This document shows positions 2,321 to 55,657 of a DNA stretch of 64,000 bases, in pieces. Position 1 is the stretch's first letter. Every line of letters starts with the position of its first letter. The DNA comes from a virus. Taxonomy: Duplodnaviria; Heunggongvirae; Uroviricota; Caudoviricetes. The stretch spans positions 1 through 64,000 of IMG/VR virus record IMGVR_UViG_3300035661_000015; one strand, 5' to 3'. The notes below the pieces were generated by a model that saw only the letters and a list, made by a program, of their open reading frames with translations, did not search any database and had not been told where the DNA came from. Made by a program: the position numbers and the translations under genes.

Positions 2321-2802
2321 TGAGCAAGTTTCGATCATTCGATTTATCAGTCAGCCGAAATCTGATTCTTGCAAATGACCCCTGCCAGGATGGATTAGCT
2401 GATTTTGATGCGGCCTTTCCTGATCTGGTAATAAATCCAGACAGACTGGTTTCCCTGGTGGACGTCGCCAAGGGAATTAAAATTGAATATGCAATCTGGT
2501 GTTTAGGGGTAACGCCACCTGACCAAGCCGAAGATACAAAATTGTTCTGCCGATTATTCGCAGGACAAGTAGCAATGCAGTCGTTACATATTTTCGAGTC
2601 CGATTATCCAGGCGACCAGCGACCACGAAAGGCAATCGAAATCGCTCTCAGCAAGACGATTTACTCCGCCGCCGATGTCGCCTATGTCGCCGCCCGTGTC
2701 GCCCATGCCACCGATGCCGTCCGTGCCAAGCAGAAAGAAATCCTTATCGTTGGATTACTCGGACAAGTTGATATGTATGATATTAATACGTTCTTGACAT
2801 AG
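2320..2802 (+). CDS. Tandem paralog 4 (very short repeat tract; divergent C-tail)
   Basis: ORF track; same N-domain; repeat about 20 aa. Confidence 0.65.
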   Translation: MSKFRSFDLSVSRNLILANDPCQDGLADFDAAFPDLVINPDRLVSLVDVAKGIKIEYAIWCLGVTPPDQAEDTKLFCRLFAGQVAMQSLHIFESDYPGDQRPRKAIEIALSKTIYSAADVAYVAARVAHATDAVRAKQKEILIVGLLGQVDMYDINTFLT

Positions 2803-7410: not shown

Positions 7411-8586
7411 GTGTCTAAGTTAATTTTTGGCAACCACCAAGAGAATACGTTGACTCAGGTTGATATGGTTATTGACTCGGGGGCCGAACACTTTGTTCTA
7501 TGTGCTGACGGGCACTTGGGTTACGGTCATCCAATCGGCGGAGTCGCCGCTTATAAAAATAAAATTTCCCTTTCGGGTGTTGGTAAAGATATTTCGTGTG
7601 GAAACTTAGCTTCACGGACGACCATGAAAGGCAAAGATTTAGCGGAAAATATAGGGGCGATTATGGATGAAATTGTTGCCAAAATCTCTTGTGGTGTTGG
7701 TCGCAATAATAAGGGGCGTGTCGATTCGCCCGTATTCGATAATCCCCTATTCGCCACCAATGATATTCTCCGCTCACTTTTGCCTATGACTAGAGATCAG
7801 TTTGGAACAATTGGGGCCGGTAATCATTACGTAGACCTTTTTGTTGATGACTCAGATGATTCTGTTTGGATTGGTATTCACTTCGGAAGTAGGGGGCTTG
7901 GATATAAATTTGCTTCCCACTATTTTGATATGGTAAATTATAAGGACGGATATCTTGTAAAGCCCGCCTTATTAGATGCTGACTCTAATGCTGGTCAAGA
8001 ATATTTGGCTGGAATGGAATTGTGTGGAGATTATGCTTACGAGTCAAGGTATTGGGTGGGCCATAAGGTTGCTGAAATTCTTGGGGCAAATATTACTAAA
8101 AGTGTCCACAATCACCATAATTATTGTTGGATAGAAGAACATTTTGGTGAGACCTACTATGTTGTACGTAAAGGGGCAACCCCCGCTTTTCCCGGCCAAC
8201 TTGGTTTTATTGGCGGGTCAATGGGTGATAATGCCGTAATCGTAGAGGGTGTTGAGTCCGAACTATCCAAAAGTACTTTATATAGTACAATTCATGGGGC
8301 CGGTCGTGATTTTAGTCGTGCCGAAGCTAAGGGGCGATACGTCAAAGATGAGAATGGTAAAAAGCAAAGGGGTGTCGGTCGCGTTCGTCACGATGAAATG
8401 CAAAAATGGCTGAATGATAAGGGCGTAGTAGTTCGTGGCGGCGACTTAGACGAGGCCCCACAAGCTTATCGGCGACTTGATGATGTTCTTAAGTTTCACG
8501 AGGGTACAATTAAAATTCTACATACCCTTAGGCCGGTCGGGGTTATGATGGCTGGACCAAATACTTTTGACCCATATAAGGACTAA
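7411..8586 (+). CDS. rtcB: RtcB-family RNA 3'-phosphate/5'-OH ligase
   Basis: CADGH, GSRGLG, NHHNY and IHGAGR motifs characteristic of RtcB. Confidence 0.8.
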   Translation: MSKLIFGNHQENTLTQVDMVIDSGAEHFVLCADGHLGYGHPIGGVAAYKNKISLSGVGKDISCGNLASRTTMKGKDLAENIGAIMDEIVAKISCGVGRNNKGRVDSPVFDNPLFATNDILRSLLPMTRDQFGTIGAGNHYVDLFVDDSDDSVWIGIHFGSRGLGYKFASHYFDMVNYKDGYLVKPALLDADSNAGQEYLAGMELCGDYAYESRYWVGHKVAEILGANITKSVHNHHNYCWIEEHFGETYYVVRKGATPAFPGQLGFIGGSMGDNAVIVEGVESELSKSTLYSTIHGAGRDFSRAEAKGRYVKDENGKKQRGVGRVRHDEMQKWLNDKGVVVRGGDLDEAPQAYRRLDDVLKFHEGTIKILHTLRPVGVMMAGPNTFDPYKD

Positions 8587-9175
8587 TATGTATATTGATT
8601 CGGTTAAATTTAATCACGATTATAGATGTTTTAATGCTGGTGACCAGTTTGAATTTAAGGATCTAACTTTACTAGTTGGTGACCAGGGTTGTGGTAAATC
8701 TTCACTTCTAGATTTATTAGGACGTAATTGTCCTGAGTTAGAGTTAAGTCTTACCGATCTTGGTTTAAGGGGTGTTGAAACATTTTATTTTGATACTGAA
8801 AAAATGAATCCACGAATTGTAGATGCTCAAATGTATACTAATCCTAATGGTACAAATCGTGGTATTGGGATAGGTCGAGCTATATCATCTAGATTTACTT
8901 CTCATGGCGAAACTATTGTTGACTTTACTGTAAATGCACTGAAAACTGCTAAAAATTGTTTATTTTTTTTAGATGAACCCGAGAGTGGATTATCTATTCG
9001 TAACCAATTCCGATTACTAAAAGAGACTAGATCCGCCATTAAAAGAAAATGTCAATTAGTTATTGCAACACACTCTTTATTACTTATTAGTAAAACTAAA
9101 TCTGTGCTTTCACTAGAACATGGTAGATGGATAGATTCAAAAAGTTTTATTAAATCACACGCGGTAGGTTTATGA
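8567..9175 (+). CDS. Small ABC-type/AAA ATPase (Walker A GDQGCGKSS; Walker B FFLDEPESGL; H-loop ATHS)
   Basis: P-loop and ABC signature-like motifs. Confidence 0.6.
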   Translation: MTHIRTNMYIDSVKFNHDYRCFNAGDQFEFKDLTLLVGDQGCGKSSLLDLLGRNCPELELSLTDLGLRGVETFYFDTEKMNPRIVDAQMYTNPNGTNRGIGIGRAISSRFTSHGETIVDFTVNALKTAKNCLFFLDEPESGLSIRNQFRLLKETRSAIKRKCQLVIATHSLLLISKTKSVLSLEHGRWIDSKSFIKSHAVGL

Positions 9176-9726: not shown

Positions 9727-10041
9727 ATGAAACAAGATTGTATAGAAGATGTACTTGATAGTATAAGAACTCAAGAGAACGATGAAATTAAAAAAATAAA
9801 AGAGAAGATTGCCATTTTAATTAAGTCCGCCCATTTTCAAGGGCTGACTAGCTTTGTACTTTATTTGCCCTACGAATCTGTTGAGCGATCGTTTGTAGGC
9901 CAAAGGTTTTTTACTTGTAATAATTATAATTATAGCTATATTTTATTGGACCTACATAAAAGAGGCTTTAATCTCAGTGAAATTTTAAAAGATCTAGTCG
10001 GTCATTATTATGTGATGATTGACTATAGTGGAGCCCTATAA
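9727..10041 (+). CDS. Hypothetical protein
   Basis: ORF track. Confidence 0.35.
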   Translation: MKQDCIEDVLDSIRTQENDEIKKIKEKIAILIKSAHFQGLTSFVLYLPYESVERSFVGQRFFTCNNYNYSYILLDLHKRGFNLSEILKDLVGHYYVMIDYSGAL

Positions 10042-10184
10042 TATGATTAACTTTATACTTTTTATATTTGCGTCCTATGGATTAATTTCCTTTATTGTTG
10101 ATACGACGCTTATTGTTTCAGTCATGATAAAGAAAGCTAATCCCCAACGTTTCTATGAATTAGAATTTAAAAAAGATAGACTTC

Positions 10185-10538
10185 ATGGCGAAAACAATCT
10201 TTTGGAGATTTAATATGACAATTTTAGAAGAATGTATTAGTAATATTAAGCAGGCTTTTGTAGTAGAGCCTATGGCCTATGAACTAGAACAAAATATATT
10301 AAAACAGGTGATTTGTTGCTGCAAAGAAAAAAGGACATTCTTTTATTTTTATATTCCTGATAAATATATGGTGACGGACTCTTATAGTTTTAAGTATTCA
10401 CCATGCACCATGTATGCAAATCTTTTTAAAAAAATGAAATATATGGGATTTGATATATCAGATATAGGCTATGGAAAAGACGAATACTTTGCTACAATTA
10501 GCTTTTTTAACATTATAGAAAATCTAAGGTCTAAGTAA
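10185..10538 (+). CDS. Hypothetical protein
   Basis: ORF track. Confidence 0.35.
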   Translation: MAKTIFWRFNMTILEECISNIKQAFVVEPMAYELEQNILKQVICCCKEKRTFFYFYIPDKYMVTDSYSFKYSPCTMYANLFKKMKYMGFDISDIGYGKDEYFATISFFNIIENLRSK

Positions 10539-10548
10539 TACCAATTAA

Positions 10549-10577
10549 AAAAGCCGCCCATAAGGCGGCTTCTTTTG
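10549..10577. terminator. Bidirectional rho-independent terminator between convergent genes
   Basis: AAGCCGCC-cataa-GGCGGCTT followed by CTTTT. Confidence 0.7.
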
Positions 10578-28409: not shown

Positions 28410-28747
28410 AGGAGAGTTTTAATATTGCTTTACACTGATGAAAAATATGCCCCCTGGCTAGACCAGGGGATTTCTATCCCAGTAACGACCAATGAAGATG
28501 ATTGGGACCACCCAGTAATTATTGGTGAGTCACTAAAAGATTATACTGATCTTGCGGATAGTTTTGAGACACAGGTTAAGACTAGTGACCGTCTTTATAA
28601 TCAAATTAAAAAACTTCGCACTAAAATTAAATACCTGGATGAAGATCTTGAATATTATAGGGATAACTTTCATGATTCCGAAGAGTATGTATCAAAATTA
28701 AAATCAAATAATAATTTTAAAGATTTTATGATTTTTATTTTCCTACT

Positions 28748-29317
28748 TTGGAATCTTCTACAATGACACTGTTAGGCCGGGCCTTTATTTTTGCTGCCGA
28801 TGCCCACAGGGCTCAAATTCGTAAAGGGAGTAGACTGCCCTACTTTGTCCATCCCGTTAATATAATGAATCTTATGAATGACTTTGGTATAGACCCCACC
28901 CTCTTTCCAGAACTTCATATTGTTGCGTGCTTACATGATACAATTGAAGATACGGACGTAACTTATGAAAATATTAGAGATCAGTACGGTAAGGATATTG
29001 CCGATATTGTACATGAACTAACTTACTATGGAGAAAACAAAGATATCTACATGGATAGTTTTTATAATTGTAGTACCGAGGCACTTATTGTAAAACTCTT
29101 TGATAGAATTTCAAATATATTAGATTATTACAAAAGTGATGATCCATATTGGGTTAAATATTCACTAAAAGGTTTACCTGTTTTTCAAGCGTTTAACAAA
29201 AGAACTAAAGAGATTAGTAACTATGTCAAAGAAAAAAGTGGTCTCGAAATCGAAAGCTTCCCACAAATCTGGTCTAAATCCGGACTACCTGACATGCCGA
29301 CTACTTTCCAAGGTTGA
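28748..29317 (+). CDS. HD-domain (p)ppGpp hydrolase-like small alarmone hydrolase
   Basis: AHRAQIRKGSRLPYFVHP ... CLHDTIEDTDVT motif as in the SpoT/RelA hydrolase domain. Confidence 0.7.
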   Translation: MESSTMTLLGRAFIFAADAHRAQIRKGSRLPYFVHPVNIMNLMNDFGIDPTLFPELHIVACLHDTIEDTDVTYENIRDQYGKDIADIVHELTYYGENKDIYMDSFYNCSTEALIVKLFDRISNILDYYKSDDPYWVKYSLKGLPVFQAFNKRTKEISNYVKEKSGLEIESFPQIWSKSGLPDMPTTFQG

Positions 29318-29968: not shown

Positions 29969-30559
29969 TTGAGTGCTTTAAAAGGTTATACTACTTATCT
30001 TGTTGGCCCTATGGACCGAGTAGTGGATGGTGGACGGGACTGGCGTAAAGAAATTTCGTCCAGGCTCTGGGATTTGAAAATAAATGTTATTGATCCTTGT
30101 GATAAGCCAATTCAATTTGGCCCCGAAAACCCTGAAACTAGGACGGAACTTAAGAAACTTCTAGATATGGGAAAGTATGACGAATATGCCGCCCGAATAA
30201 AGGAAATTGCCCTAATTGACCTTGGCTTTTGTGATATGTCGGACTTTTTAATTGCTAAAGTTGATATCGATGTACATATGTGCGGCACCTATGAAGAGAT
30301 TTTTACGGCCAACCGGATGAAACGGCCCATTCTTGTTTGGTGTCCACAGGGTAAAAATAATATTCCGGCTTGGCTATGGGGACGCTTGTCCCACGAGATG
30401 TTTTTTAGTACAATGGACGAGTTGATTGATCATATCGCCACCTTTACTTTCTCCGCTAACACTCATCGTCGTTGGCGACGTTTTTCGGTTAGTGATATTT
30501 TCAAGGGAATGGGATATAAAAGAATTACTCATGAAATGAAAGTTAAATACAATACATGA
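29969..30559 (+). CDS. Nucleoside 2-deoxyribosyltransferase-like protein (YLVGPM motif)
   Basis: YL(A/V)GP motif. Confidence 0.45.
   Translation: MSALKGYTTYLVGPMDRVVDGGRDWRKEISSRLWDLKINVIDPCDKPIQFGPENPETRTELKKLLDMGKYDEYAARIKEIALIDLGFCDMSDFLIAKVDIDVHMCGTYEEIFTANRMKRPILVWCPQGKNNIPAWLWGRLSHEMFFSTMDELIDHIATFTFSANTHRRWRRFSVSDIFKGMGYKRITHEMKVKYNT
30437..30459 (-). repeat. Dispersed motif, reverse copy (in CDS)
   Basis: CGCCACCTTTACTTTCTCCGCTAA. Confidence 0.75.
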
Positions 30560-32113: not shown

Positions 32114-33169
32114 ATGTTTAATTTCATAGCACCTTTTACAGATCAGACAAGTTATGGTATAGTAGCAAATAATATTTTGTCTGAATTAAATTCTATTGAA
32201 AGTTGCCCTTCAATTTTCCCGATTGGTCAAGCCTCTTATGATCCGGAACAACCTGATCAACTATCGGCTTTACAAAATGGTTTTTCTAGGGCGGCTTTTT
32301 ATAATAGATATGAGTCGAGCGTAAGACTTTTTCATGAATTTTCTCAGGCCGAACATGTTGGTTCTAAACATATCGCCTTTCCTATTTTTGAGTTAGACAC
32401 ACTAAAGCCCCAAGCTATTCATCATTTAAAAAATGTCGATCAAATTATAGTTTGTTCGGAATGGGCTAGAGAAGTGATGATGATGAATGTCGGGTGTGAC
32501 TGTGAGGTTGTACCCCTTGGCGTGAATACCGAGATCTTTAAGCCCGCCCCACTTAGTAATAATCCTCGTTCTACAATATTCATGAATGTGGGCAAATGGG
32601 AAAAACGTAAGGGTCACGATATTTTACATACGGCATTTCGCAAGGCTTTTAGTAAAAATGACGATGTTGTTTTGTGGATGATGCCCGATAACCCATTTAT
32701 AGATCAAAGAGAGTGGGATGATCTTTATCAAAAAAGTATTGGTAATCAACTTAGTGTTTTTGGTAGAATTTCAACAAATCAATTAGTTAGTATTATGCAA
32801 AGAGCCGATTGCTTTGTTTTTCCGACTCGTGCCGAAGGTTGGGGGCTCCCAATCCTTGAGGCTATGTCTCTTGGTAAAGAAGTTATTGTTACGTATTATT
32901 CGGGTCAAACCCAGTTTATTAATAATAAAAACGCTAGACTTATTGAAATCGATAATCTGGAATTGGCTAATGATGGTAAATGGTTTCACGGTGAAGGTAG
33001 TTGGGCCGAGTTTGGTAAAAGACAAGAAGAACAATTAATTGAGCATATGAGGGCGGTTCATCGTAAAAAACAGATGGGTGAAAATTTATTTAATGAAATA
33101 GGGCGAGAAACAGCCCTAAGATTTACTTGGCGTAATACAACTAAAGCACTTTTGGAAGCGATTAAATAA
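32114..33169 (+). CDS. Glycosyltransferase family 1 (GT-B)
   Basis: FVFPTRAEGWGLPILEAMSLGKEVI signature. Confidence 0.7.
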   Translation: MFNFIAPFTDQTSYGIVANNILSELNSIESCPSIFPIGQASYDPEQPDQLSALQNGFSRAAFYNRYESSVRLFHEFSQAEHVGSKHIAFPIFELDTLKPQAIHHLKNVDQIIVCSEWAREVMMMNVGCDCEVVPLGVNTEIFKPAPLSNNPRSTIFMNVGKWEKRKGHDILHTAFRKAFSKNDDVVLWMMPDNPFIDQREWDDLYQKSIGNQLSVFGRISTNQLVSIMQRADCFVFPTRAEGWGLPILEAMSLGKEVIVTYYSGQTQFINNKNARLIEIDNLELANDGKWFHGEGSWAEFGKRQEEQLIEHMRAVHRKKQMGENLFNEIGRETALRFTWRNTTKALLEAIK

Positions 33170-33296: not shown

Positions 33297-33373
33297 CTAG
33301 ATGTATACCAACAGCCTTCTAAGCTGTATCAGGTTAAAGGATGAAAATGCAGGTTCGAGTCCTGTCATCTAGG
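33297..33373 (+). tRNA. Atypical tRNA-Arg(TCT)-like: 7-bp acceptor, anticodon arm ACAGC-CTTCTAA-GCTGT, T-arm, but apparently no D-arm and a 21-nt variable region
   Basis: Perfect acceptor CTAGATG/CATCTAG; anticodon loop with T33 and TCT. Confidence 0.5.
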
Positions 33374-34282: not shown

Positions 34283-34603
34283 TTGGACGAGAAGTTTTAC
34301 ATAAGCTTGTATCAGGGTGAAATGCCGGGCCTTCTTTATTGCAATATTGGTTGGCCGAAGGGACCATTTAATCCAGAGGATTTTAATACGTTTACAGAGA
34401 TTCTAAAGTCTCAGACTAATCGTCAAATTATCGACCTAATGATTGCGTCGATTAAGAGTTATGGGGCCGATAATGACGATATGGAAAATGCTAACAACTT
34501 TATAAGTATGCTCACCCTTTTAAAAAATCCAATCTGGAATAATCCTGAACCTTATATTAGTCCACTTAATTTCACTGTTCATAACGTAGGCGTAACACGA
34601 TGA
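34283..34603 (+). CDS. Hypothetical protein
   Basis: ORF track. Confidence 0.4.
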   Translation: MDEKFYISLYQGEMPGLLYCNIGWPKGPFNPEDFNTFTEILKSQTNRQIIDLMIASIKSYGADNDDMENANNFISMLTLLKNPIWNNPEPYISPLNFTVHNVGVTR

Positions 34604-35463
34604 TTTATAATTATGAAACTCTTAAGTATGATACGCTCCTAGAAGAAATTCTTTGCTACGGAGATGTCAGAGTAAATAAGCGAACCGGGATTAAAACTAT
34701 TAGTATTTTTGGTGATATGCGTCACTATGACGTTTCTAAATCGGTTCCCCTTTTAACGGGACGAAGACTATATTGGAAGTCAATTGTAAAAGAATTATTG
34801 TGGTTTCTATCCGGAAGTACAAATGTGGGCGATCTTGAAGAAATGGGTGTTAATTATTGGTCACCTTGGCGTGATGAAGATTTTGAAAAAGAACATGGTT
34901 TTATTTCGGGAGCATTGGGGCCAACCTATGGTCATCAATTAAGGGCCTTTGGTCATCCATATGGTAATGGTTATTTTAGTGGACCAGGACTTAATGATCA
35001 ACTTTTGACCTTAATAGACAATATTAAAAAAGATCCAACTGATAGGGGTCATATTATAAATCTATGGAATCCCGCCCAAATCCCCCTTATGAAGCTACGT
35101 CCATGTTTATATGGATACCAGTTTGGGGTTGACTCACAGGGGAATATGGATTTAATGATCAATCAGCGTAGTGCCGATGTTCCGGTTGGAGTTCCGGCTA
35201 ATTTATTTTTCTCAACATGCTTTCTTTATATGGTAGCTCAGCAAACTGGATATAAGCCGAGAAATTTAATCCATAGCATTGCGGACGCCCATATTTATGA
35301 CAATCAAATAGATGCCGTTAAAGAATATTTAGGAAGAACCTCGCCCCCAGACCCTAATCTTACTATTAATAAGGCCGCAGATATCTTGTCTTATAAGATT
35401 GAAGATTTTGAATTGGAAAATTATAACCCCCTGCCGCCAATTAAGTTTGAGGTTGCTATATGA
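34600..35463 (+). CDS. thyA: Thymidylate-synthase-family enzyme (ThyA-like; atypical PCL and SAD at positions normally PCH and SCD)
   Basis: Alignable by eye to ThyA over its length (WNP...PC...QRS...). Confidence 0.75.
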   Translation: MIYNYETLKYDTLLEEILCYGDVRVNKRTGIKTISIFGDMRHYDVSKSVPLLTGRRLYWKSIVKELLWFLSGSTNVGDLEEMGVNYWSPWRDEDFEKEHGFISGALGPTYGHQLRAFGHPYGNGYFSGPGLNDQLLTLIDNIKKDPTDRGHIINLWNPAQIPLMKLRPCLYGYQFGVDSQGNMDLMINQRSADVPVGVPANLFFSTCFLYMVAQQTGYKPRNLIHSIADAHIYDNQIDAVKEYLGRTSPPDPNLTINKAADILSYKIEDFELENYNPLPPIKFEVAI

Positions 35464-36023
35464 TTTCGATCGTTGTAGCCTATGATAAAAATAGGGGTAT
35501 AGCACAATCTTACCAACCCCAACTTTTACCTTGGCAAGACTTTACGGGCAAAAATAAATATGATGAGGATATGTCACTTTTTAAAAAGTTGACTATGGAC
35601 TCTGTAGTTATTATGGGCCGAAAAACTTTTGATAGTTTACCCCGAAGATCAGAAATTGTTTATTCTGGCAGATATAGTAGTACCATTATTACGAACGCCC
35701 TTAAACATCGTCTTAATGTAGTAATTACAAAACGCCCCAAGATTTTTCACGAAGATCCTAATGTGGCCTACTATAAGGATATACAGTATGCTATCGATGA
35801 TTATAAAAAACTTTGTCCCGACCTGCCCATATTTATAATTGGTGGGGCCGAAATCTACAAACTCGCCCTCGCCCTTGATCTTGTGGACCAAGTAATAGCC
35901 TCAGAGATTCAAGAGAGTTTTATGAGTGCCGACATACATTTTCCGCCTATATCTGGTTTTGAAGAAGTTGCCCAAGAAGAGTACACTGGTTTTAATCGCG
36001 TAACTTATAAGAGGGTTCGATGA
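35460..36023 (+). CDS. folA: Dihydrofolate reductase
   Basis: ISIVVAYDKNRGIA...LPW and VIMGRKTFDSLP motifs. Confidence 0.8.
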   Translation: MISIVVAYDKNRGIAQSYQPQLLPWQDFTGKNKYDEDMSLFKKLTMDSVVIMGRKTFDSLPRRSEIVYSGRYSSTIITNALKHRLNVVITKRPKIFHEDPNVAYYKDIQYAIDDYKKLCPDLPIFIIGGAEIYKLALALDLVDQVIASEIQESFMSADIHFPPISGFEEVAQEEYTGFNRVTYKRVR

Positions 36024-39997: not shown

Positions 39998-40256
39998 AAA
40001 AATTACCTTTTTCGATCATTATAATGAAAAGCATGTTGATTATGAAATCTGTAAAACAGAGCAAGAGTTTTTAGATATTTATAATTCTTATAATACTCTT
40101 GATGGCGATTCAGTAATTATGCTTGACGAGGGCGAATTGCCGCCACAGGATTGGATTATAGGTCAAATAGATTTTGGTAATTCTTTAGTAAAAAGTGGTA
40201 GGGCGATTATAGAATTATACACACCGCTTTTGGGAGATAAAAATGTCTGTAAATAA
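39987..40256 (+). CDS. Hypothetical protein (start supplied by the forward motif)
   Basis: ORF track. Confidence 0.4.
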   Translation: MRWAKITFFDHYNEKHVDYEICKTEQEFLDIYNSYNTLDGDSVIMLDEGELPPQDWIIGQIDFGNSLVKSGRAIIELYTPLLGDKNVCK

Positions 40257-40905
40257 ATGGCCCAACTACCCCGATGACGCACACATTAGGGCTTTAGAAA
40301 ATTCACACGTTGGTTTTTATTCATATAGTACTAGAAACCCTGTTCTACCCACTCCTAATATATTTAAAAAAACTGATGATCAGGAGGTTAGTCGGGATAA
40401 ATTTATAGAATCTGTAACCACTAAACCCCACTGTCTTGTCGGCACCGCCGCCATGATTCGCCATAAAAACCACTTTTTAGTTGGTATCCGTAAGGGGTCT
40501 CATTGTCCCGGCATTTGGGCTTTTCCTGGTGGTCACGTCGAATTAGAAGACGAGTCCCTTAGGGCCGCCACCGAACGCGAAGTCGCCGAAGAAGTTTTGG
40601 ATTATAGGACGGGCCAAGGTCTTAAGATTTTCACCTATGATTTTCGACTCGGAAGCCCCCAAGCTTTTTTAGTTCATAAAAAAGTTAATAATAATACAAA
40701 GTCCTATGTGACGATGTATATGGAATGCGAGCTAGATACTTGGGATAAAATTGATTTGGATCGGCCCCTACTTTCTCCGCTTAATGAACGTCATAAATGC
40801 GAACAGTGGGAGTGGAAAACCCTTGACAAGTTGCACGAAATAGAGTATAATAATAAAGAGTCGTGGATTCCATTGGATCTTATGAGGGAGTATTATGGTT
40901 TATGA
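40243..40905 (+). CDS. Nudix hydrolase
   Basis: Nudix box GGHVELEDESLRAATEREVAEEV. Confidence 0.75.
   Translation: MSVNKWPNYPDDAHIRALENSHVGFYSYSTRNPVLPTPNIFKKTDDQEVSRDKFIESVTTKPHCLVGTAAMIRHKNHFLVGIRKGSHCPGIWAFPGGHVELEDESLRAATEREVAEEVLDYRTGQGLKIFTYDFRLGSPQAFLVHKKVNNNTKSYVTMYMECELDTWDKIDLDRPLLSPLNERHKCEQWEWKTLDKLHEIEYNNKESWIPLDLMREYYGL
40762..40783 (-). repeat. Dispersed motif, reverse copy (in the Nudix CDS)
   Basis: CGGCCCCTACTTTCTCCGCTTA. Confidence 0.8.
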
Positions 40906-44463: not shown

Positions 44464-44535
44464 GGCCCATTCGTATAGTGGCTAAGACGACCGCTTTTCA
44501 GGTGGTAGAAAACGGATCGAAACCGTTATGGGCTA
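44464..44535 (+). tRNA. tRNA-Glu (anticodon TTC)
   Basis: Cloverleaf by eye: acceptor, D-arm, ACCGC-TTTTCAG-GTGGT, T-arm AACGG-ATCGAAA-CCGTT. Confidence 0.65.
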
Positions 44536-44692
44536 TCTTTAGTTATTGTCGCTTACATGGATAGTTTAGGCAATGAATAAAGAACGGTAAATTAAACATG
44601 ATGTTGCTGGACGGGAACATTGTATCTAAAATTTAATTTACTTACCCCGTCCATTAACTTTCTTGTCGGTGGTTCGATTCCCTCACTTATCT

Positions 44693-44767
44693 TCGGGGAG
44701 TGACGGTGTTGGTACTGTCAAAAGCCTTTGAAACTTTTTGACCTTGGTTCGATTCCAAGTCCCCGAA
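44693..44767 (+). tRNA. tRNA-Gln (anticodon TTG)
   Basis: Acceptor TCGGGGA/TCCCCGA; D-arm; loop CTTTGAA; T-arm CTTGG-TTCGATT-CCAAG. Confidence 0.65.
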
Positions 44768-44771
44768 CTTT

Positions 44772-44843
44772 GCCTGAGTAGCTTAATGGTAAAGCACCCG
44801 ATCTGTAATCGGGCAACTCGGAGTTCAAATCTCTGCTTAGGCT
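44772..44843 (+). tRNA. tRNA with anticodon loop TCTGTAA (apparent TGT, Thr; C at position 33)
   Basis: Acceptor GCCTGAG/CTTAGGC; D-arm GCTT/AAGC; CCCGA/TCGGG; T-arm. Confidence 0.55.
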
Positions 44844-44850
44844 CTTTAAT

Positions 44851-44921
44851 GCGTCAGTGATGTAGTGGTTGCATGAGACTCTTCCAAAGTCTATGAAAGA
44901 ATTCGATTTTCTTCTGACGTA
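44851..44921 (+). tRNA. tRNA-Gly (anticodon TCC)
   Basis: Acceptor GCGTCAG/CTGACGT; AGACT-CTTCCAA-AGTCT; T-arm AAGAA-TTCGATT-TTCTT. Confidence 0.65.
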
Positions 44922-45018
44922 CTAGCTGGACCATACCTAGTCTTTTTGTGATGAAAATAATGAAAAGTATCGTCCGTCTGGTGCTTAAAGGAATTTTTAT
45001 TAAAGGGAGCGTAGTTCT

Positions 45019-46337: not shown

Positions 46338-46644
46338 CATCTTGTATAAAGGGGTTCAACATACAGTGGTAGTTGACTTAGATGATTTTGACAAAGTATC
46401 TAAATATAAATGGCACTTGAATAAGCATAATAAAAAAGATGGGAGTGAGTTGAGGGTTCAAACAAATCTCCCAAGATCACAGGGAAAGCGTCCTAAGCTT
46501 AGGCTACATATTTTAATTGCGGGTAAGCCAAAGGAAGGAAACGTAGTTGACCACATAGATAGAAATCCACGTAATTGTAAAAAAGAAAATCTTCGTCACG
46601 TGAGCGTGGCGGAAAATAACCGCAATAGAGGCAAAAGAGAATGA
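46279..46644 (+). CDS. HNH homing endonuclease
   Basis: VVDHIDRNPRNCKKENLRHVSVAENN. Confidence 0.65.
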   Translation: MVSWFMKHDYRTQNNEVLFNILYKGVQHTVVVDLDDFDKVSKYKWHLNKHNKKDGSELRVQTNLPRSQGKRPKLRLHILIAGKPKEGNVVDHIDRNPRNCKKENLRHVSVAENNRNRGKRE

Positions 46645-48557
46645 GTATATTTGAAAAACGGGTAGCTTTTAAACCATATGAGTATCCAGATGTTCTAAAA
46701 TTTAGAGACGCTATCAATCATAGTTATTGGATTGTTACAGAATTTAATTTTTCTAGTGATGTACAGGACTTTAAAACTAATTTAACCGAAGTGGAGAGAC
46801 ATGCTATTAGGAACGCCCTTTTAGCTATTTCGCAGATTGAGATTTCCGTAAAAAAGTTTTGGGCAAAGATCGGGGATAAGTTTCCAAAGTCCGAATTTGA
46901 TCAGGTAGGTATAGTTTTTGCGGAATCCGAAGTTAGGCATGCTCAAGCTTATTCTGAGCTATTAGAAATTCTTGGTCTAAATGATGATTTTACCGGATTA
47001 CTTCAAGAGCCATCAATCCAGGGTCGGGTCGAATACTTAACAAAATATTTAAAAAACGCCTCAGATAACTCAAACGAAAACTATACATTGACATTGACTC
47101 TATTTTCTATTTTTATTGAGAATGTGAGTCTTTTTTCGCAATTCCTAATCATCCAATCGTTCAATAAATACAAAAATATATTAAAAGATATAGATAATGT
47201 AGTTCAGGCTACTCAGAAGGAAGAGTGTTATTCAGAAGATACTGATATTTTAACACCTAACGGTTGGGTGCCATTAAAAGATATAAAGAACGGAGATTCG
47301 GTTTATCAGTTTAAAAATGGTAAAATCACAAAAACAACCGCTTCAAATAAAATTGAGAGAGATTATAATGGACGGATGTATGAGATTGGTAATAAGTCAA
47401 GTAATTGCTTAGTAACTCCTGGTCATGAAATGGTTTATATCAACAAGATGGGGGATTATGAAAAGAATACCGCTAAAGATATTAAGTATCATTCAAAAAT
47501 AAAAATTCCTGCCGGTGGTATTTTAGAAAATAATTCTGAAGAAAAGTTGACGTGGAGTGAGCGTCTCCAAATCGCTATGCAATCTGATGCGACTAGATTA
47601 TATTGGATTAACGCCAATGGTGAAAAAATTTGGAGAGGAAAAGATGGTGGTTATAACTATGAGTTCACACTAACAAAACAAAGAAAAAAGGATAGGTTAA
47701 GATTAATTTTAAATAATACAAATATTGAGTTTGTAGAACAAGATATTGGTAAAGAGACGGAATTTAAAATAAAATATAACAATGATAATGATTATAAAAC
47801 ATTTACTTGGGTTGATTTAAGTAATAAAAATAAAGATTGGTGCATAGATTTTGTTCAAGAGTGCGTTGAGTGGGATGGATATAGAGGTGGCAGCAACATG
47901 GGGTTTAGCACTACGAATAAAAAGGTGGCCGATATTTTTCATGCTATTTCTGTACTGGCGGGTTATAGAACAAATCTTTTGACTAATAAAAGTAAAAGAG
48001 GATATAAGGATTGTTATAAAATTAGTATAAGTGAAAGGTCACTTACCCCATCTGGACACAGTTACGATAAAGTCGAACAAGGTTATAGTGGTATGGTTTA
48101 TTGCGTTACCGTTCCATCTGGAATCATTATCACAAGACGCAACGGAAAGGTTTGTGTTGCCGGAAATTGCCTACATGCACTTTTCGGGGTTTATCTGATC
48201 AAAGAAATTCAAAAAGAGTGTCCCGATTGGTTTAATGAGGATTTTTATAATAAGTTATATAGGGCTTGTAAGAAAGCGTATGAGGCAGAGGAAAAGATTA
48301 TAGACTGGATATTTGAAAAGGGTGAACTTGATTTTCTACCGAAAGATATTGTAAAAGAGTTTATTAAGGATAGGTTTAATGAGAGCTTACTTATGGTGGG
48401 CGGAAAAGAAGTTTTTGAAGTTGATACGGAGAAGTTAAGTTCTTTAAGTTGGTTCAACGAAGGTGTTAGTGGCCAGACCAGTACAGATTTTTTCCATAAA
48501 AAACCAGTGACTTATAGCAAAAAAACAAAATCAATCAAAGCGGGAGACTTATTCTAA
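46641..48557 (+). CDS. nrdB: Ribonucleotide reductase small subunit NrdB interrupted by an intein
   Basis: R2 ferritin-like fold motifs; extein junction QKEE|C...N|CLHALF matches RDEGLHCDF. Confidence 0.8.
   Translation: MSIFEKRVAFKPYEYPDVLKFRDAINHSYWIVTEFNFSSDVQDFKTNLTEVERHAIRNALLAISQIEISVKKFWAKIGDKFPKSEFDQVGIVFAESEVRHAQAYSELLEILGLNDDFTGLLQEPSIQGRVEYLTKYLKNASDNSNENYTLTLTLFSIFIENVSLFSQFLIIQSFNKYKNILKDIDNVVQATQKEECYSEDTDILTPNGWVPLKDIKNGDSVYQFKNGKITKTTASNKIERDYNGRMYEIGNKSSNCLVTPGHEMVYINKMGDYEKNTAKDIKYHSKIKIPAGGILENNSEEKLTWSERLQIAMQSDATRLYWINANGEKIWRGKDGGYNYEFTLTKQRKKDRLRLILNNTNIEFVEQDIGKETEFKIKYNNDNDYKTFTWVDLSNKNKDWCIDFVQECVEWDGYRGGSNMGFSTTNKKVADIFHAISVLAGYRTNLLTNKSKRGYKDCYKISISERSLTPSGHSYDKVEQGYSGMVYCVTVPSGIIITRRNGKVCVAGNCLHALFGVYLIKEIQKECPDWFNEDFYNKLYRACKKAYEAEEKIIDWIFEKGELDFLPKDIVKEFIKDRFNESLLMVGGKEVFEVDTEKLSSLSWFNEGVSGQTSTDFFHKKPVTYSKKTKSIKAGDLF
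47226..48167 (+). mobile_element. Intein in NrdB (Cys1 ... Asn, +1 Cys; about 314 aa with endonuclease-like middle)
   Basis: Begins CYSEDTD, ends VCVAGN followed by C; host protein continuity restored when removed. Confidence 0.7.
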
Positions 48558-51304
48558 TGGGTTATAGATGGTTAAATAAGTTATCACAAGATTTTCTTGA
48601 AAAAGACTACTTGCTACCAGGGCAAACGGTTGACGAACGTGTTAATATTATCTGTAATCATGCGGAAAATATTTTAAAATTACCGGGATTTGCAGCTAAA
48701 CTTAAGGCCAATTTTGAAAAAGGTTGGTATTCTTTTAGTACCCCAATCTGGACTAATTTTGGGACCGATAGAGGTTTAGCTATATCTTGTTTTGGTTCGT
48801 ATATAGAAGATACGATGGAGTCGATTGCGGGCACATGGGCCGAAGTCTGTATGATGACTAAACTAGGTGGTGGCACATCGGCTTATTTTGGCGATCTTCG
48901 CCCACGTGGGGCCGAAATTAAAAATAATGGAAAAAGTTCGGGTTCGGTCAATTTTATGGAAGCTTTTGATACCTTGATAAATATCGCTAGTCAAGGCTCC
49001 AGTAGACGTGGTAATTGTGCCGTATATTTGCCGGTTGATCATAAGGATATTGAAGAATTTTTACAGATCAGGCAAGAGGGGCATCCTATCCAAGACTTGT
49101 CTTTCGGCGTCTGTATTCCTGAGGGCTGGATGCAAAGCATGATTGATGGAGATCAATCTAAGCGGAAAATATGGGCCCGTATTTTGGAATGCCGATCTAA
49201 TATGGGCTATCCTTATATTTTCTTTTCGGATAATGTAAGTAATGGTACAGTAGATTGTTATAAAAATACGGATAGAAAAATCACCCACTCTAATTTATGT
49301 TGTGTTACAAAAGATCAGAGAGTTGTTTCGGATCGGGGGCTATTAACAGTTGAGGAATTATATAATATAGGAGGTGAATTAAAATTATTTGACGGGATCA
49401 ATCAGGTGTCGGCTTCGCCGATGTTAAAGATATCTGATTCTGAAGATATTTTTAAGATTACCCTAGATAATGGATTAACACATAAAGTTACTAGCGAGCA
49501 TAGAATTGAAACCAATAAGGGAATGGTAAAATTAAAAGATCTAAAAATTAGAGATAAGGTTGCAATTCAATTAAATACTGGTATTTTTGGTAATAAATCA
49601 ATGGAAGATGAGGCGTTTTTACTTGGAACCTATCAGGCTAATGGTACTCAAAATAAAGATAATATTTATCTTGATCTATGGGAACATAGTTTTGATCTAA
49701 TTGAAGAAATAGAGACTAGGTTTAGTAATGTGTTTTATAAATATAGTTGCGATAAGTATGATATTACAAATCAGTATAACTCAACTTTTCAAAGATCTAT
49801 TGATCCAACTAAATTTTATGATTGTGTCGTAACTGATTCGCCCATAAAGAAAAAGAGACTTGGGTCAAATTGTCTTAAAAAGGCACTAAATTTTGAAAAA
49901 GGATATATTCCTAATTGGATTTGGGAATCGGATGAAAAAACTCAGTGGCAGTATATTAGAGGCCTTTTCTACGCCGATGGCACTATCAGTATGACAAATG
50001 ATAAGGGTAGCCCTATTTACTTAAGCATCAGTAATATTAATAAAGCTTTTCTTGAAGAATTACAAATATTGCTTTTAAATCTCGGGGCAAGGTTTGCATT
50101 ATCTTTAGGTAATCCGGCTGGCGAAAGATCGCTACCAAATGGTAAAGGTGGTTATAGTCTATATAATTGCCAAGATTGCTATAGGCTAGTTTGTGGTAGT
50201 AAAGTTGCCGCATTATTATTTGAGAAGAATATACAATTTTTAACCCGTAAAGGTATAGAATTAGAAAATAGGGTATATAGGGACAATACCAAGAAATTCT
50301 CTAGAATTAAATCTATTGAGCATATTGGACAAGATTCCGTATACTGCTGTGAGGTTTATACCAATGATCACAAATGGGTTTGCAACGGAATAATTACTCA
50401 TAATAGTGAAATACTTTTACCAGATAACGCCGAAGAATCATTTGTATGTGATCTTTCTAGTATGAATATGATTTACTACGATGAATGGAAAGATACTGAC
50501 GCTATTGAACTACTGGTCTATCTTCTAGATGCGGTAATGACAGATTTTATTGAAAAGGCTAAGAAAATTAAATTTATGGAGCGGGCCGTTAGGTTTGCTG
50601 AAAATCATAGGGCTCTTGGGATCGGTTGGTTTGGGTGGCACAGTCTTTTGCAAAGTAAGATGATTGCTTTTGAAAGTATGGAAGCAAAGTATTTAAATAT
50701 TGAAATCGCCAAAAATATGAAAGAAAAAGCCTATGGGGCGTCGGCAAAAATGGCCGAAGAGTACGGTGAGTGTAAGATGACTAAAGGGTATGGACGTAGA
50801 CACGTAACACTTTCCGCAATCGCCCCCACAAAATCCTCTTCTTTTATTATTGAACAAGCCTCCGAAGCAGTCGAGCCCGATACGGCGAATATCACAGTCA
50901 AGGATTTAGCCAAGGGAAAAGTCACTATTAAAAATAAATACTTAATTAAAATATTGGAAACTAAGGGAAAGAATACTGAAAAAGTCTGGTCGTCTATTTT
51001 AAAAATGGGCGGATCTGTTCAACATTTAGATTTTTTAACAAATGAAGAAAAAGCGGTATTCAAAACCTTCGGAGAAATTTCTCCGCGTGAAATTATAATT
51101 CAGGCCGCCCAAAGACAGAAATATATTGATCAGTCTCAATCTATTAATTTAATGATCCATCCATCAGTACCGACTAAAGATGTAAATGCCCTACTTATTG
51201 AAGCTTGGCAAATGGGTGTAAAAACCCTATATTATCAAAAAAGTGTTAACGCCTCTCAAGAATTTGCTAAAAATATTCTGAATTGTTCGTCTTGCGAAGG
51301 TTGA
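48557..51304 (+). CDS. nrdA: Ribonucleotide reductase large subunit NrdA interrupted by an intein at the active-site NLC|SEI
   Basis: ATP-cone/RNR motifs; SNLC then intein then SEILLPDN. Confidence 0.85.
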   Translation: MGYRWLNKLSQDFLEKDYLLPGQTVDERVNIICNHAENILKLPGFAAKLKANFEKGWYSFSTPIWTNFGTDRGLAISCFGSYIEDTMESIAGTWAEVCMMTKLGGGTSAYFGDLRPRGAEIKNNGKSSGSVNFMEAFDTLINIASQGSSRRGNCAVYLPVDHKDIEEFLQIRQEGHPIQDLSFGVCIPEGWMQSMIDGDQSKRKIWARILECRSNMGYPYIFFSDNVSNGTVDCYKNTDRKITHSNLCCVTKDQRVVSDRGLLTVEELYNIGGELKLFDGINQVSASPMLKISDSEDIFKITLDNGLTHKVTSEHRIETNKGMVKLKDLKIRDKVAIQLNTGIFGNKSMEDEAFLLGTYQANGTQNKDNIYLDLWEHSFDLIEEIETRFSNVFYKYSCDKYDITNQYNSTFQRSIDPTKFYDCVVTDSPIKKKRLGSNCLKKALNFEKGYIPNWIWESDEKTQWQYIRGLFYADGTISMTNDKGSPIYLSISNINKAFLEELQILLLNLGARFALSLGNPAGERSLPNGKGGYSLYNCQDCYRLVCGSKVAALLFEKNIQFLTRKGIELENRVYRDNTKKFSRIKSIEHIGQDSVYCCEVYTNDHKWVCNGIITHNSEILLPDNAEESFVCDLSSMNMIYYDEWKDTDAIELLVYLLDAVMTDFIEKAKKIKFMERAVRFAENHRALGIGWFGWHSLLQSKMIAFESMEAKYLNIEIAKNMKEKAYGASAKMAEEYGECKMTKGYGRRHVTLSAIAPTKSSSFIIEQASEAVEPDTANITVKDLAKGKVTIKNKYLIKILETKGKNTEKVWSSILKMGGSVQHLDFLTNEEKAVFKTFGEISPREIIIQAAQRQKYIDQSQSINLMIHPSVPTKDVNALLIEAWQMGVKTLYYQKSVNASQEFAKNILNCSSCEG
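49301..50404 (+). mobile_element. Intein in NrdA (Cys1 ... His-Asn, +1 Ser; 368 aa; LAGLIDADG-like GLFYADGTI)
   Basis: CVTKDQ ... ITHN|S; homing endonuclease motif inside. Confidence 0.8.
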
Positions 51305-53689: not shown

Positions 53690-54253
53690 ATGGACATTTT
53701 GAACCACAAGACTTTGGTCCTAAATCAGTGCGGTACTCCCATAAAGTGCTTGCATTGGTCTAGGGCCATTAGTCTTGTTTATGTGAGAAATAAGGCAACT
53801 GTTTTAAATTATTATGATATTAAACTTAGGGCGGGTCACGGTAAAAATTATCCCTTACCTGCTGTTATTATTCTCAAGAAGTATGTTCGTCAAAACTATC
53901 TTCATGTTGGAATATCTAAGCGGAAAATATATGTGAGGGACAAATATGAGTGCCAGTATTGCGGCGAACGGCTAAAACAAGACGGTCTGACCATTGATCA
54001 TATTATTCCAAAATCCTTCTTTAAAAAGGGGCCGCAGGTGGCGGTCGATGGAAAGCAGTTGGTCAATTCGGGCTCTTGGCGTAATTTAATCACGTCATGT
54101 AAGCCATGTAATACGAAAAAGGGCAATCGGACCCCCGAGCAGGCGGGCATGAACCTCTTGACTTTGCCCCGTATTCCTGATAGAATAGAGATCAAGTTGG
54201 GACTCTTAAGTGAAAGTTTTCCAGATGAATGGAGAAATTACATTGCAGTTTAA
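53690..54253 (+). CDS. HNH endonuclease
   Basis: CQYCGERL...DHIIPKS...CKPCNTKKGN. Confidence 0.65.
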   Translation: MDILNHKTLVLNQCGTPIKCLHWSRAISLVYVRNKATVLNYYDIKLRAGHGKNYPLPAVIILKKYVRQNYLHVGISKRKIYVRDKYECQYCGERLKQDGLTIDHIIPKSFFKKGPQVAVDGKQLVNSGSWRNLITSCKPCNTKKGNRTPEQAGMNLLTLPRIPDRIEIKLGLLSESFPDEWRNYIAV

Positions 54254-54523: not shown

Positions 54524-55657
54524 GTGTTAAATCCAAATAATTCCATCATTGATTCTGGATATAAATTTGTTCTCTCAATTACGGGGGGTGGTCAAGAGAT
54601 TATTGGCGAACTTACAAAATATGGGGGTATGTCATCATGTCTTCTAGAATGTAATGTGCCGTATTCTCAACCCGCCCTTGAAAAACTTATCGGTCACCTA
54701 CCAACTAAAACTGTAAGTAAAGAGACCGCACTTAAATTAGCTATGGTGAGCTATCTTAGAGCAAAAGAGTATACGGGCGAAAATAAAAATATTTATGGAA
54801 TTGGCGTGACCTCCTCTTTGGTAAAGCTGGACGGTGAACGAGGTGGGCGTGAACATAAGGTCTGTATTGGTTTACATGGTACAAATACTTATTACCTTGA
54901 AATTATTTTAAAGCAGAATCGAACGAGATTAGAAGAAGAAGAGTTGGTTTCAAATATCATTGGGGCGATTTTAGAATATGCTGGTTATGAGTTCGATATA
55001 TTTGTGAATTGTTCTAGAAGTCAAATTAATGGACTTTTATCTACCTTAGACTTTTTTAATATTGAACTTGGGTTTTTTAAGTCTGAATATAATAATGCCT
55101 ACATATTTTTAAAAGATGGTCTAGCTGCTAGTCAGTGTGAAACTCCGCTTAATCCAACACTCTTTCCTGTTTCTATGAATCCACTTCATAGTGGGCACAT
55201 TACTATAAAAGAGTTTTATGAAAAAAAATACGATAAAACTGTTTATTATGAACTATGTCTAAAAAACGCCGACAAAGGACAGCTTGATTTTATTTCAACC
55301 CAAGAAAGAATTAAACAGGTTAATGAATTGTTTATTACAAACTTACCTTTGTTTATTGATAAATTTAACAAATTTCCTTATTCGTCTTTTTTAATGGGGG
55401 TCGATACCTTTCATCGTATCCTTAATCCTAAATACTATAACTTAGAGACTATTAGAGATGTAATTAAAAAATACAACCATCACTTTGATCGTAGATCGTC
55501 TCTACATATTTTTAATAGAGTTGGTTACGAGGGAACTTATAATTATCTTAAGGGCTACCTTGAAGCCCTAGATCTTGATTGTTCTGGTATCATTTTTGAA
55601 GATGATTTTATTCCAACAGACATTTCTTCTACTAAAATCAGAAAAGGGCAGCTATGA
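54524..55657 (+). CDS. Bifunctional CinA/PncC-like domain plus NMN adenylyltransferase (HxGH, ISSTKIR)
   Basis: N-terminal SITGGG...ECNVPYS (CinA C-terminal-domain-like); C-terminal NPLHSGH and ISSTKIR. Confidence 0.7.
   Translation: MLNPNNSIIDSGYKFVLSITGGGQEIIGELTKYGGMSSCLLECNVPYSQPALEKLIGHLPTKTVSKETALKLAMVSYLRAKEYTGENKNIYGIGVTSSLVKLDGERGGREHKVCIGLHGTNTYYLEIILKQNRTRLEEEELVSNIIGAILEYAGYEFDIFVNCSRSQINGLLSTLDFFNIELGFFKSEYNNAYIFLKDGLAASQCETPLNPTLFPVSMNPLHSGHITIKEFYEKKYDKTVYYELCLKNADKGQLDFISTQERIKQVNELFITNLPLFIDKFNKFPYSSFLMGVDTFHRILNPKYYNLETIRDVIKKYNHHFDRRSSLHIFNRVGYEGTYNYLKGYLEALDLDCSGIIFEDDFIPTDISSTKIRKGQL

Follow-up and report, generated by a model that had tools for sequence, protein, structure and literature searches.

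A Divergent Small Alarmone Hydrolase, Mesh1-Like by Profile, Encoded by an Uncultured Large Lytic-Type Phage

Introduction

Alarmone signaling and the toxSAS and CapRel systems are recognized barriers to phage infection, and small alarmone hydrolases (SAHs) carried by phages are an obvious countermeasure. Only two phage SAHs have been tested so far, both through neutralization of heterologous toxicity: those of phages SSU5 (PaSpo) and PVP-SE1 (PbcSpo) neutralize five of five tested toxSAS toxins, leading to the proposal that incoming phages bypass alarmone-mediated defense with such hydrolases (Jimmy et al. 2020, PMC7229694). The SSU5 enzyme serves as a routine detoxifier of CapRel and PhRel2 in overexpression, and phage SAHs also appear in later genome papers (e.g., PMC12846349). 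Here we describe an SAH gene at positions 28763-29317 of a 64,000-nucleotide stretch of DNA (hereafter, the window; positions 1 to 64,000 of IMG/VR record IMGVR_UViG_3300035661_000015) from an uncultured member of the Caudoviricetes. By every defining feature checked, namely domain, residues, architecture, and fold, its product is an SAH.

Enzymes of this kind act on a range of substrates. Mesh1-type and PaSAH-type enzymes are promiscuous, hydrolyzing (p)ppGpp as well as (p)ppApp, whereas the (p)ppApp-only hydrolase Aph1, from a temperate Bacteroides phage, carries Asp24 where TtRel has Arg (R43), along with the further signature residues R119 and K133-Y134; in TtRel, T153 contacts the guanine (PMC10083569). 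SAHs also de-pyrophosphorylate tRNA at its CCA terminus, and both MESH1 and ATfaRel restore aminoacylation of tRNA that has been pyrophosphorylated by FaRel2 (Kurata et al., bioRxiv 10.1101/2021.04.30.441581). Human MESH1 has, in addition, been reported to be an NADPH phosphatase, in work cited in the same preprint.

Results/Discussion

The Gene and Its Start Codon

A preliminary description of the window, made from the sequence alone, had placed a 189-amino-acid (aa) SpoT-type hydrolase at 28748-29317. An open reading frame (ORF) of this length, counted from a TTG codon, is present there on the + strand, and both of the peptides quoted for it (AHRAQIRKGSRLPYFVHP and CLHDTIEDTD) are found in its translation. 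The start, however, is most likely the ATG at 28763, which gives a protein of 184 aa and leaves the five extra codons from TTG 28748 probably untranslated. Three observations favor this start: the ATG overlaps the TGA stop of an upstream 113-aa ORF (orf113) as ATGA, it is the start in the two public and independent gene calls made on identical DNA (one from JGI, on a 128.9-kb contig, the other from Logan SRR11723145, on the 71.6-kb contig _179113), and the alignments of homologues begin at its Met. The gene is thus recorded as follows:

28763-29317, + strand: coding sequence of the SAH (184 aa and a TGA stop)
Gene calls P0001 and L001: SAH at 10001-10555

An ORF listed from 29223 would overlap the SAH by 95 nt, but this overlap is not real and arises from longest-ORF listing, since the called start of the gene 3' of the SAH is TTG 29328.

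Family Identity and Predicted Structure

The Pfam model for RelA/SpoT-type HD domains (HD_4, PF13328), whose gathering cutoff is 27.2 bits, matches the protein with 46.2 bits (E = 5.2e-12), and the identical JGI protein carries PF13328 in its precomputed annotation as well. PF01966, the model for HD domains in general, scores 16.4, under its cutoff of 22. No other Pfam domain was seen in the 184 aa, neither the RelA_SpoT synthetase (PF04607) nor TGS nor ACT, and the protein is therefore a single-domain one, as the preliminary description had it in reporting the hydrolase signature of the RelA/SpoT enzymes without a synthetase domain. Among PHROGs, phrog_990 (“metal-dependent phosphohydrolase”) is matched at 1.7e-24, and the long spoT_relA models of NCBIfam are matched over their first 80-100 positions or so only.

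A phmmer search of the Protein Data Bank (PDB) matched the N-terminal domains of Rel enzymes and SAHs at E-values from 1e-13 to 4e-8. The top matches, over the N-terminal half of the protein, were the hydrolase halves of Rel (8acu, 6yxa, and 1vj7; 1.5e-13 to 9e-13), and the stand-alone SAHs matched were PaSAH (6yvc/6z3n), Drosophila Mesh1 (3nqw), human MESH1 (3nr1/5vxa), Lmo0812 (4yf1), RelH (7qoc), and Aph1 (7smg). An exhaustive HMMER search of 1.84 billion cluster representatives returned 15,216 relatives at E ≤ 1e-3, mostly single-domain proteins of 160-210 aa, the top identity to the query being 45%. Matches to the SAH were found by tblastn in 136-155 phage records; at the DNA level, megablast against 50,697 phage records gave no match, so that there is no near-DNA relative among the cultured phages. 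A word-indexed protein search returned the SAH itself as its sole match, a scan of IMG/VR with the single protein returned nothing, and the PADLOC defense-system models matched neither the SAH nor its neighbors. The protein is thus a divergent member (at most 45% identical to anything found) of the phage SAHs; because such proteins have already been described, it is an addition to them and not a new system.

An AlphaFold2 model built from the homologue alignment is all-helical and of high confidence (pLDDT 93.8, pTM 0.90). The top 46 Foldseek matches in the PDB are all SAH or Rel/SpoT hydrolase structures (TM 0.66-0.72), including PaSAH, MESH1, Mesh1, and RelH; the Mesh1-NADPH complex (5vxa) is also among the Foldseek matches. 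Structural neighbors in BFVD are viral proteins annotated as “(p)ppGpp synthetase/hydrolase” or as HD-domain proteins, and matches to viral HD proteins of the 5'-deoxynucleotidase/COG1896 type were insignificant (E > 0.5).

In four IMG/VR loci (L024, L025, L056, and L067) an HD_4/SAH domain lies within an ORF of 846-1092 aa. The neighboring module in these ORFs is the PHROGs “cytidyltransferase” (phrog_3041/395), with DUF6267 in L025. The fused modules had no sequence match in the PDB, and the only Pfam match was DUF6267 in that one ORF.

Active-Site Residues

Conservation was counted in an alignment of 61 sequences, comprising the query and 60 of its best HMMER matches. H15, R20, H30, H58, D59, E62, K111, D114, and N118 are invariant, and D63, R115, and D121 are conserved in at least 90% of the sequences. 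The query keeps all of these, a full RelA/SpoT hydrolase catalytic set, and the printed alignment with 1vj7 maps its residues to RelSeq R44, H53, H77-D78, and E81-D82. The motifs are located as follows:

28820-28825, + strand: R20-K21 (CGT AAA), equivalent to RelSeq R44-K45 and MESH1 R24-K25; predicted nucleotide-binding by homology
28850-28852, + strand: H30 (CAT), first metal-ligand His, equivalent to RelSeq H53 and MESH1 H35
28934-28951, + strand: H58-D59-T-I-E62-D63 (CAT GAT ACA ATT GAA GAT), equivalent to RelSeq H77, D78, E81, and D82
29093-29125, + strand: K111-L-F-D114-R115-I-S-N118-I-L-D121, the “KxxDRxxNxxD” motif, equivalent to RelSeq D144/N148

H58 and D59 are the predicted HD metal ligands, E62 and D63 the predicted ED catalytic dyad, and D114, by homology, the predicted fourth metal ligand. 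The His-Asp ligands on which the preliminary description depended (H30, H58-D59, and D114) are therefore all present, alongside an HD_4 match above threshold. In profile alignments to 3nqw, 3nr1, and 8acu, the counterpart of the C-terminal motif in MESH1 is “KLADKLYNLRD”, and across Mesh1 and MESH1 the query motif is aligned to “KLAD(K/R)LxNLRD”. The third residue past the Asn, D121, is an Asp that Mesh1 and MESH1 share, whereas Rel enzymes have Thr there.

Comparison with Known Hydrolases

The profile of the family scores best on Mesh1 (3e-31) and MESH1 (7e-31), which it matches over the full length; Rel enzymes follow at about 1e-25, PaSAH is weaker (1.4e-22), and Aph1 is the weakest among the solved SAHs (8e-15). 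The designation “SpoT-type” in the preliminary description thus holds for the family and the fold, which are those of RelA/SpoT hydrolases, but the C-terminal half appears, from sequence comparison, Mesh1-like rather than SpoT-like. Mesh1 and MESH1 resemble the query in length (about 180 aa) and in structure (TM 0.67-0.72) and share with it the R-K pair, the His, HD, ED, and the “KxxD(K/R)xxNxxD” motif, including the Asp at N+3. They are metazoan and not viral, and despite the best profile match and the shared NxxD their identity to the query is only 21-24%.

PaSAH, from Pseudomonas aeruginosa, is the top Foldseek match (E = 1.1e-6, TMt 0.73, 28% identity) and is matched by phmmer at 4.6e-12 over residues 10-124. 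It is likewise an orphan SAH, a dual (p)ppGpp/(p)ppApp hydrolase, but is encoded by a chromosomal bacterial gene, unlike the phage gene in the window. The long RelA/SpoT homologues (Rel and SpoT; 1vj7, 6yxa, 8acu, and 7qpr) have all of the catalytic residues in common with the query, which differs from them in having no synthetase, TGS, or ACT domain and in having NxxD, as Mesh1 does, where Rel has NxRT.

Aph1 (7smg; PMC10083569) has the same HD_4 fold (TMt 0.74) and is also phage-borne, but it is a compact protein of 149 aa with two helices fewer and adjoins its cognate toxin, whereas the query has 184 aa and extra C-terminal helices. Because the query keeps the invariant R20 and is longer than Aph1, the (p)ppApp-only signature appears to be absent; the counterpart of Aph1 R119 in the query is a tentative mapping.

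The window protein is, like the SAHs of SSU5 and PVP-SE1, a phage-borne single-domain RelA/SpoT-type HD hydrolase without a cognate synthetase, and its expected role is the same, the neutralization of toxSAS or of alarmone-mediated arrest. Of the two tested proteins, sequence comparison covered SSU5_099. SSU5_099 matches by BLASTP at 8e-15, with 36% identity over the N-terminal 96 aa, and by hhalign at 99.3% over 151 columns with about 27% identity. It is homologous but no closer to the query than Mesh1 or PaSAH, and placement in a shared PaSpo subfamily is therefore unsupported. The two also differ in the C-terminal motif (KLFDRISN in the window protein, KLADLLDN in SSU5) and in their phages, SSU5 being a temperate phage-plasmid and the phage in the window of the rII lytic type.

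Proposed Function

The window has the genes of a large lytic-type phage: rIIA, rIIB, RtcB, ribonucleotide reductase (RNR), ThyA, DHFR, dCMP deaminase, NUDIX, PhoH, a UvsX/RecA-like gene, and a cluster of NMNAT-like, NAMPT, and Macro-domain genes. No PF04607 synthetase was found in the called genes, which span about 2.8 to 61 kb of the window, and the SAH is in that sense an orphan. We consider it likely that the protein is a catalytically competent stand-alone SAH, Mesh1-like by profile, which strips 3'-pyrophosphate in the service of host takeover or counter-defense.

The predicted scheme of metal, chemistry, substrate range, timing, and role is as follows. The gene would be expressed from an accessory-gene region of the large lytic rIIA/rIIB-type phage, with no cognate synthetase among the genes called at about 2.8 to 61 kb. 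H30, H58, D59, and D114 would, by homology, hold a divalent metal (Mn2+ in characterized members), E62-D63 would activate the nucleophilic water, and R20, K21, and N118 would position the nucleotide. With the 3'-pyrophosphate removed, (p)ppGpp would become GDP/GTP and (p)ppApp, probably, ADP/ATP; since Mesh1-type and phage SAHs are promiscuous, tRNA with a pyrophosphorylated 3'-CCA end may be a substrate as well. The two substrates named in the preliminary description, (p)ppGpp and (p)ppApp, are kept in this scheme, and pyrophosphorylated tRNA has to be added to them as a candidate (bioRxiv 10.1101/2021.04.30.441581). The infected cell would in this way be kept out of growth or translation arrest imposed by alarmones or toxSAS. 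Such a role against the stringent response or toxSAS would fit, by analogy, with that of the two other phage SAHs (PMC7229694).

Several points weigh against this interpretation. The closest relative is only 45% identical, and the function of the protein and of its near kin is read from sequence. The Mesh1-like NxxD replaces the NxRT of Rel, with its guanine-contacting Thr, a change compatible with more than one base preference, and by sequence any of (p)ppGpp, (p)ppApp, pyrophosphorylated tRNA, and NADPH may be the physiological substrate. Finally, the immediate neighbors of the SAH are RNA-related (a tRNA-like array and a Ro-like gene) and not related to nucleotide signaling.

Taken alone, the SAH is an expected accessory gene and brings no new mechanism. 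As a very divergent, Mesh1-like SAH with intact catalytic residues, from an uncultured rII-type lytic phage, it does widen the sequence space in which counter-defense enzymes can be sought, and it is a candidate for deciding between alarmones and pyrophosphorylated tRNA as the preferred substrate of Mesh1-like phage SAHs. Its position behind the tRNA-like array and the Ro-like gene hints at an RNA-directed role.

Gene Neighborhood and an RNA-Directed Role

The SAH lies in a co-directional run in the order tRNA-like array, Ro-like gene, orf113, SAH, orf123, orf85, and a gene for a 196-aa nucleoside-deoxyribosyltransferase-like (NDT-like) protein. The Ro-like gene is separated from orf113 by 15 nt, orf113 overlaps the SAH as ATGA, the SAH is followed after 10 nt by orf123 and this after 15 nt by orf85, and orf85 overlaps the NDT-like gene by 4 nt. 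The overlap of the orf113 stop with the SAH start implies translational coupling. The features upstream of the SAH are:

25602-25630, + strand: perfect (12/12) match to the sigma-70 consensus, TTGACA-17-TATAAT, heading the co-directional run; candidate operon promoter by consensus match only
26058-26154, + strand: tmRNA-like element (Rfam)
26221-26301, + strand: tRNA with a long variable arm (Rfam), called “Tyr-ATA” by ARAGORN
26374-26438, + strand: tRNA with a stub anticodon arm (Rfam)
26721-28409, + strand: Ro/TROVE-like gene, DUF2828 plus DUF7788/vWA, phrog_850 “RNA-binding protein”
28281-28309, + strand: sigma-70-like site TTGACA-17-TACAAT (11/12), within the Ro-like gene at its 3' end; by consensus match only, it may serve orf113-SAH as an internal promoter
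28425-28766, + strand: orf113, 113 aa, with an acidic/coiled-coil N-terminal part, a hydrophobic C-terminal tail, and a strong AGGAG ribosome-binding site

Promoter-like sites are not enriched in the region (30 found, against 25 ± 5 in shuffled sequence). Neither orf113 nor the flanking small ORFs had a significant family match in Pfam, PHROGs, NCBIfam, or PADLOC.

The tRNA-like array occupies a 1.25-kb noncoding stretch (25602-26720) upstream of the Ro-like gene and holds about six tRNA-like elements that bear a T arm, the three listed above being those that score with Rfam in a local search. The conserved motif GAACRCTnnCAGCATTT occurs in seven copies, which head the array and follow or separate its elements. 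The array looks like a set of Y-RNA/YrlA-like tRNA mimics that may share a processing signal; against Rfam, it gave no Y_RNA or YrlA match, and at E ≤ 1 only the tRNA and tmRNA models were returned.

A perfect GC-rich hairpin (CCCCTGG-CTAGA-CCAGGGG) is found at 28451-28469, just inside the 5' end of orf113 and 42 nt past the Ro-like stop. It is flagged as terminator-like on both strands; attenuation, or processing, between the Ro-like gene and orf113-SAH could be its role.

Is this neighborhood conserved? We collected 80 SAH loci from IMG/VR (1.09 Mb), using a 9-sequence alignment because the 61-sequence alignment was too diverse, and, as a reverse sample, 80 loci with Ro-like relatives (1.5 Mb), which were probed with a hidden Markov model (HMM) from the SAH alignment. 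All-against-all clustering of the neighbors within 5 kb of the SAH found no family in more than seven of the 80 viral loci, and the most frequent families are of unknown function. Homologues of orf113, orf123, orf85, and the NDT-like gene were absent from all 160 viral loci. For lack of recurrent neighbors in this sample, we reject a conserved SAH operon. A tRNA is found within 5 kb of the SAH in nine of the 80 loci, and a Ro-like gene in none. Conversely, an HD/SAH-like ORF is present in two of the 80 Ro-like loci (L101 and L102, of one huge-phage lineage), the closest Ro-like relatives (L090-L100) lack an SAH, and 19 of the 80 have a same-strand tRNA within 1.5 kb upstream of the Ro-like gene. 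By these counts, we reject linkage of the Ro-like gene and the SAH as a general rule.

In L101 (9962-14966; IMGVR_UViG_3300045988_175545, 380 kb) and L102, genes for a divergent HD phosphohydrolase of 236 aa, an RNA ligase of 519 aa (PF09414 plus a PHA02142 OB fold), and Ham1/ITPase come, in this order, directly after a Ro-like gene, the cluster sitting downstream of a gene for a sigma-70-family factor. The cluster resembles a cassette for RNA repair with Ro at its center. The L101 HD protein is remote from the SAH, with an hhalign probability of 96%, no HD_4 match, and no Arg-Lys pair (QKYD in place of QxRK). Two cultured phages, Vibrio phage SRILMA and Stenotrophomonas phage DLP_6 (L003 and L004), have a Ro-like gene some 3 kb from an HD/SAH gene and a tRNA in the interval; relatives of SRILMA, judged from near-identical SAH matches, probably share this spacing. 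Proximity of Ro-like and HD genes thus recurs sporadically in unrelated large phages and is not general among phage SAHs.

These observations bear on an alternative in which the SAH acts chiefly on RNA and heals its 3' ends: it would clear 3'-(pyro)phosphate off tRNA or the neighboring tRNA-like RNAs as part of a phage set for RNA repair and quality control, together with the tRNA-like array, the Ro-like protein, and RtcB. The tight run right behind the Ro-like gene and a tRNA-like array headed by a 12/12 promoter speaks for it, as do the RtcB gene at 7411-8586, the SRILMA and DLP_6 arrangements, the order of Ro-like gene, HD protein, RNA ligase, and Ham1 in L101/L102, and the de-pyrophosphorylation of the tRNA CCA end by other SAHs (bioRxiv 10.1101/2021.04.30.441581). 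However, the linkage is confined to a single lineage in the reverse sample, where the HD protein is only remotely related, RtcB is 19 kb away, the gene order varies between lineages, and accessory genes and tRNAs form clusters in large phages in any case. Because proximity of Ro-like and HD genes is sporadic, we keep an RNA-directed role as a minority hypothesis, one that we regard as doubtful.

In a fuller version of this hypothesis, to which we give a similarly low probability, Y-RNA-like tRNA mimics, the Ro/TROVE-like protein, and the SAH would form a promoter-driven operon for phage RNA repair or quality control. The SAH would clear 3'-(pyro)phosphates from tRNA and tRNA-like RNAs damaged by defenses of the CapRel, FaRel2, or PhRel2 type, while RtcB, encoded elsewhere in the genome, would reseal cleaved tRNAs. 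If this is true, hydrolases of the RelA/SpoT family would be RNA-end healing enzymes in a Ro-centered viral module, one that recurs sporadically in SRILMA-like vibriophages, in DLP_6, and in the huge phages L101/L102.

Other Alternatives

A metabolic role is improbable. The protein would in this case be a Mesh1-like phosphatase of NADPH (giving NADH), or of a related 2'/3'-phosphorylated cofactor, acting in the phage NAD(P) economy; Mesh1 and MESH1 are its best solved profile matches, human MESH1 has the reported NADPH phosphatase activity, NAD salvage genes (NMNAT-like, NAMPT, and Macro; 54524-57782) are present in the window, and some phage HD_4 domains are fused to a “cytidyltransferase”-like module. 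The low identity to MESH1 argues to the contrary, as does the distance of the NAD genes, which belong to another gene block, 25 kb away. Pfam, moreover, does not identify the fused module, and those bacterial and phage SAHs that have been tested act on alarmones or pyrophosphorylated tRNA.

It is more improbable still that the protein is a generic HD phosphohydrolase, such as a 5'-deoxynucleotidase or dNTPase, that remodels nucleotide pools and does not act on alarmones. Genes of nucleotide metabolism are abundant nearby (NDT-like, metallophosphoesterase, ThyA, and DHFR), and homologues are often named just “metal-dependent phosphohydrolase”, but the general HD model stays below its cutoff while HD_4 is well over threshold, the features specific to RelA/SpoT-family hydrolases (ED dyad, Arg, and DRxxN motif) are all present, and Foldseek matches to HD proteins of the 5'-deoxynucleotidase type are insignificant.

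Self-immunity, in which the SAH would be a type IV antitoxin against the phage's own toxic alarmone or tRNA pyrophosphokinase (compare Aph1/Apk2 and ATfaRel/FaRel), is highly improbable even though SAHs are so used in prophages and toxin-antitoxin modules (PMC7229694, PMC10083569) and this one is translationally coupled to the uncharacterized orf113, given that about 58 kb of the window has no RelA_SpoT synthetase in its called genes, that orf113 is too small for a small alarmone synthetase and has no family match, and that the phage is of the lytic rII type and not temperate and its SAH appears to lack the Aph1 signature.

Other Features of the Window

The wider surroundings of the SAH on the + strand (23477-25464, 29969-30559, 32114-33169, and 34600-36023) encode two metallophosphoesterases, two nucleoside 2-deoxyribosyltransferase-like proteins, a GT4 glycosyltransferase with a “GT4-conflict” match, ThyA, and DHFR, and may be a toolkit for nucleotide or DNA modification.

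Several gene groups farther from the SAH are also of note, all on the + strand:

7411-8586: RtcB tRNA-splicing ligase (PF01139, 1.8e-62); after it come a small AAA_15/AAA_21-like ATPase and a weak match to metallophosphoesterase (to 9175)
40243-40905: NUDIX gene
46641-51304 and 53690-54253: RNR region
54524-57782: NMNAT-like (CTP_transf_like), NAMPT/NAPRTase, and Macro-domain genes in a row

The first of these groups (7411-9175) may be a counter-defense module for tRNA repair. The NMNAT-like, NAMPT, and Macro-domain set looks like a means of NAD+ reconstitution and ADP-ribose handling, as used against NAD-depleting defenses. In the RNR region, the large subunit (915 aa) contains Intein_splicing and LAGLIDADG_3 domains, the small-subunit ORF is oversized (638 aa) and has PHROG matches to foreign domains, and HNH endonuclease genes flank; several selfish elements appear to have been inserted into this nucleotide-metabolism block.

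At the start of the window (100-2802, + strand) are four head-to-tail paralogues with a conserved N-terminal domain of about 115 aa that matches phrog_18326 (function unknown). In the first three this domain is joined by a repeat of variable length, rich in Ala, Asp, His, and Tyr (AADAAYAAAHAADAA...), and by a C-terminal tail that is conserved; the fourth (2320-2802) has almost no repeat and a shorter, divergent tail. The GCN-rich repeats produce spikes of 54-74% GC in a genome that is otherwise about 37% GC. Since the high GC content stems from the Ala-rich repeats of these four tandem paralogues, a chimeric assembly is probably not the cause of the jump. The independent Logan contig ends at about position 2787 of the window, probably at an assembly break in the paralogue array.

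Outside the tRNA-like array, a tRNA at 33297-33373 (+ strand) is detected by Rfam with 37.7 bits and missed by ARAGORN, and a cluster of four tRNAs at 44464-44922 (+ strand) comprises Glu-TTC, Gln-TTG, Thr-TGT, and Gly-TCC, the Gln tRNA being called by ARAGORN only.

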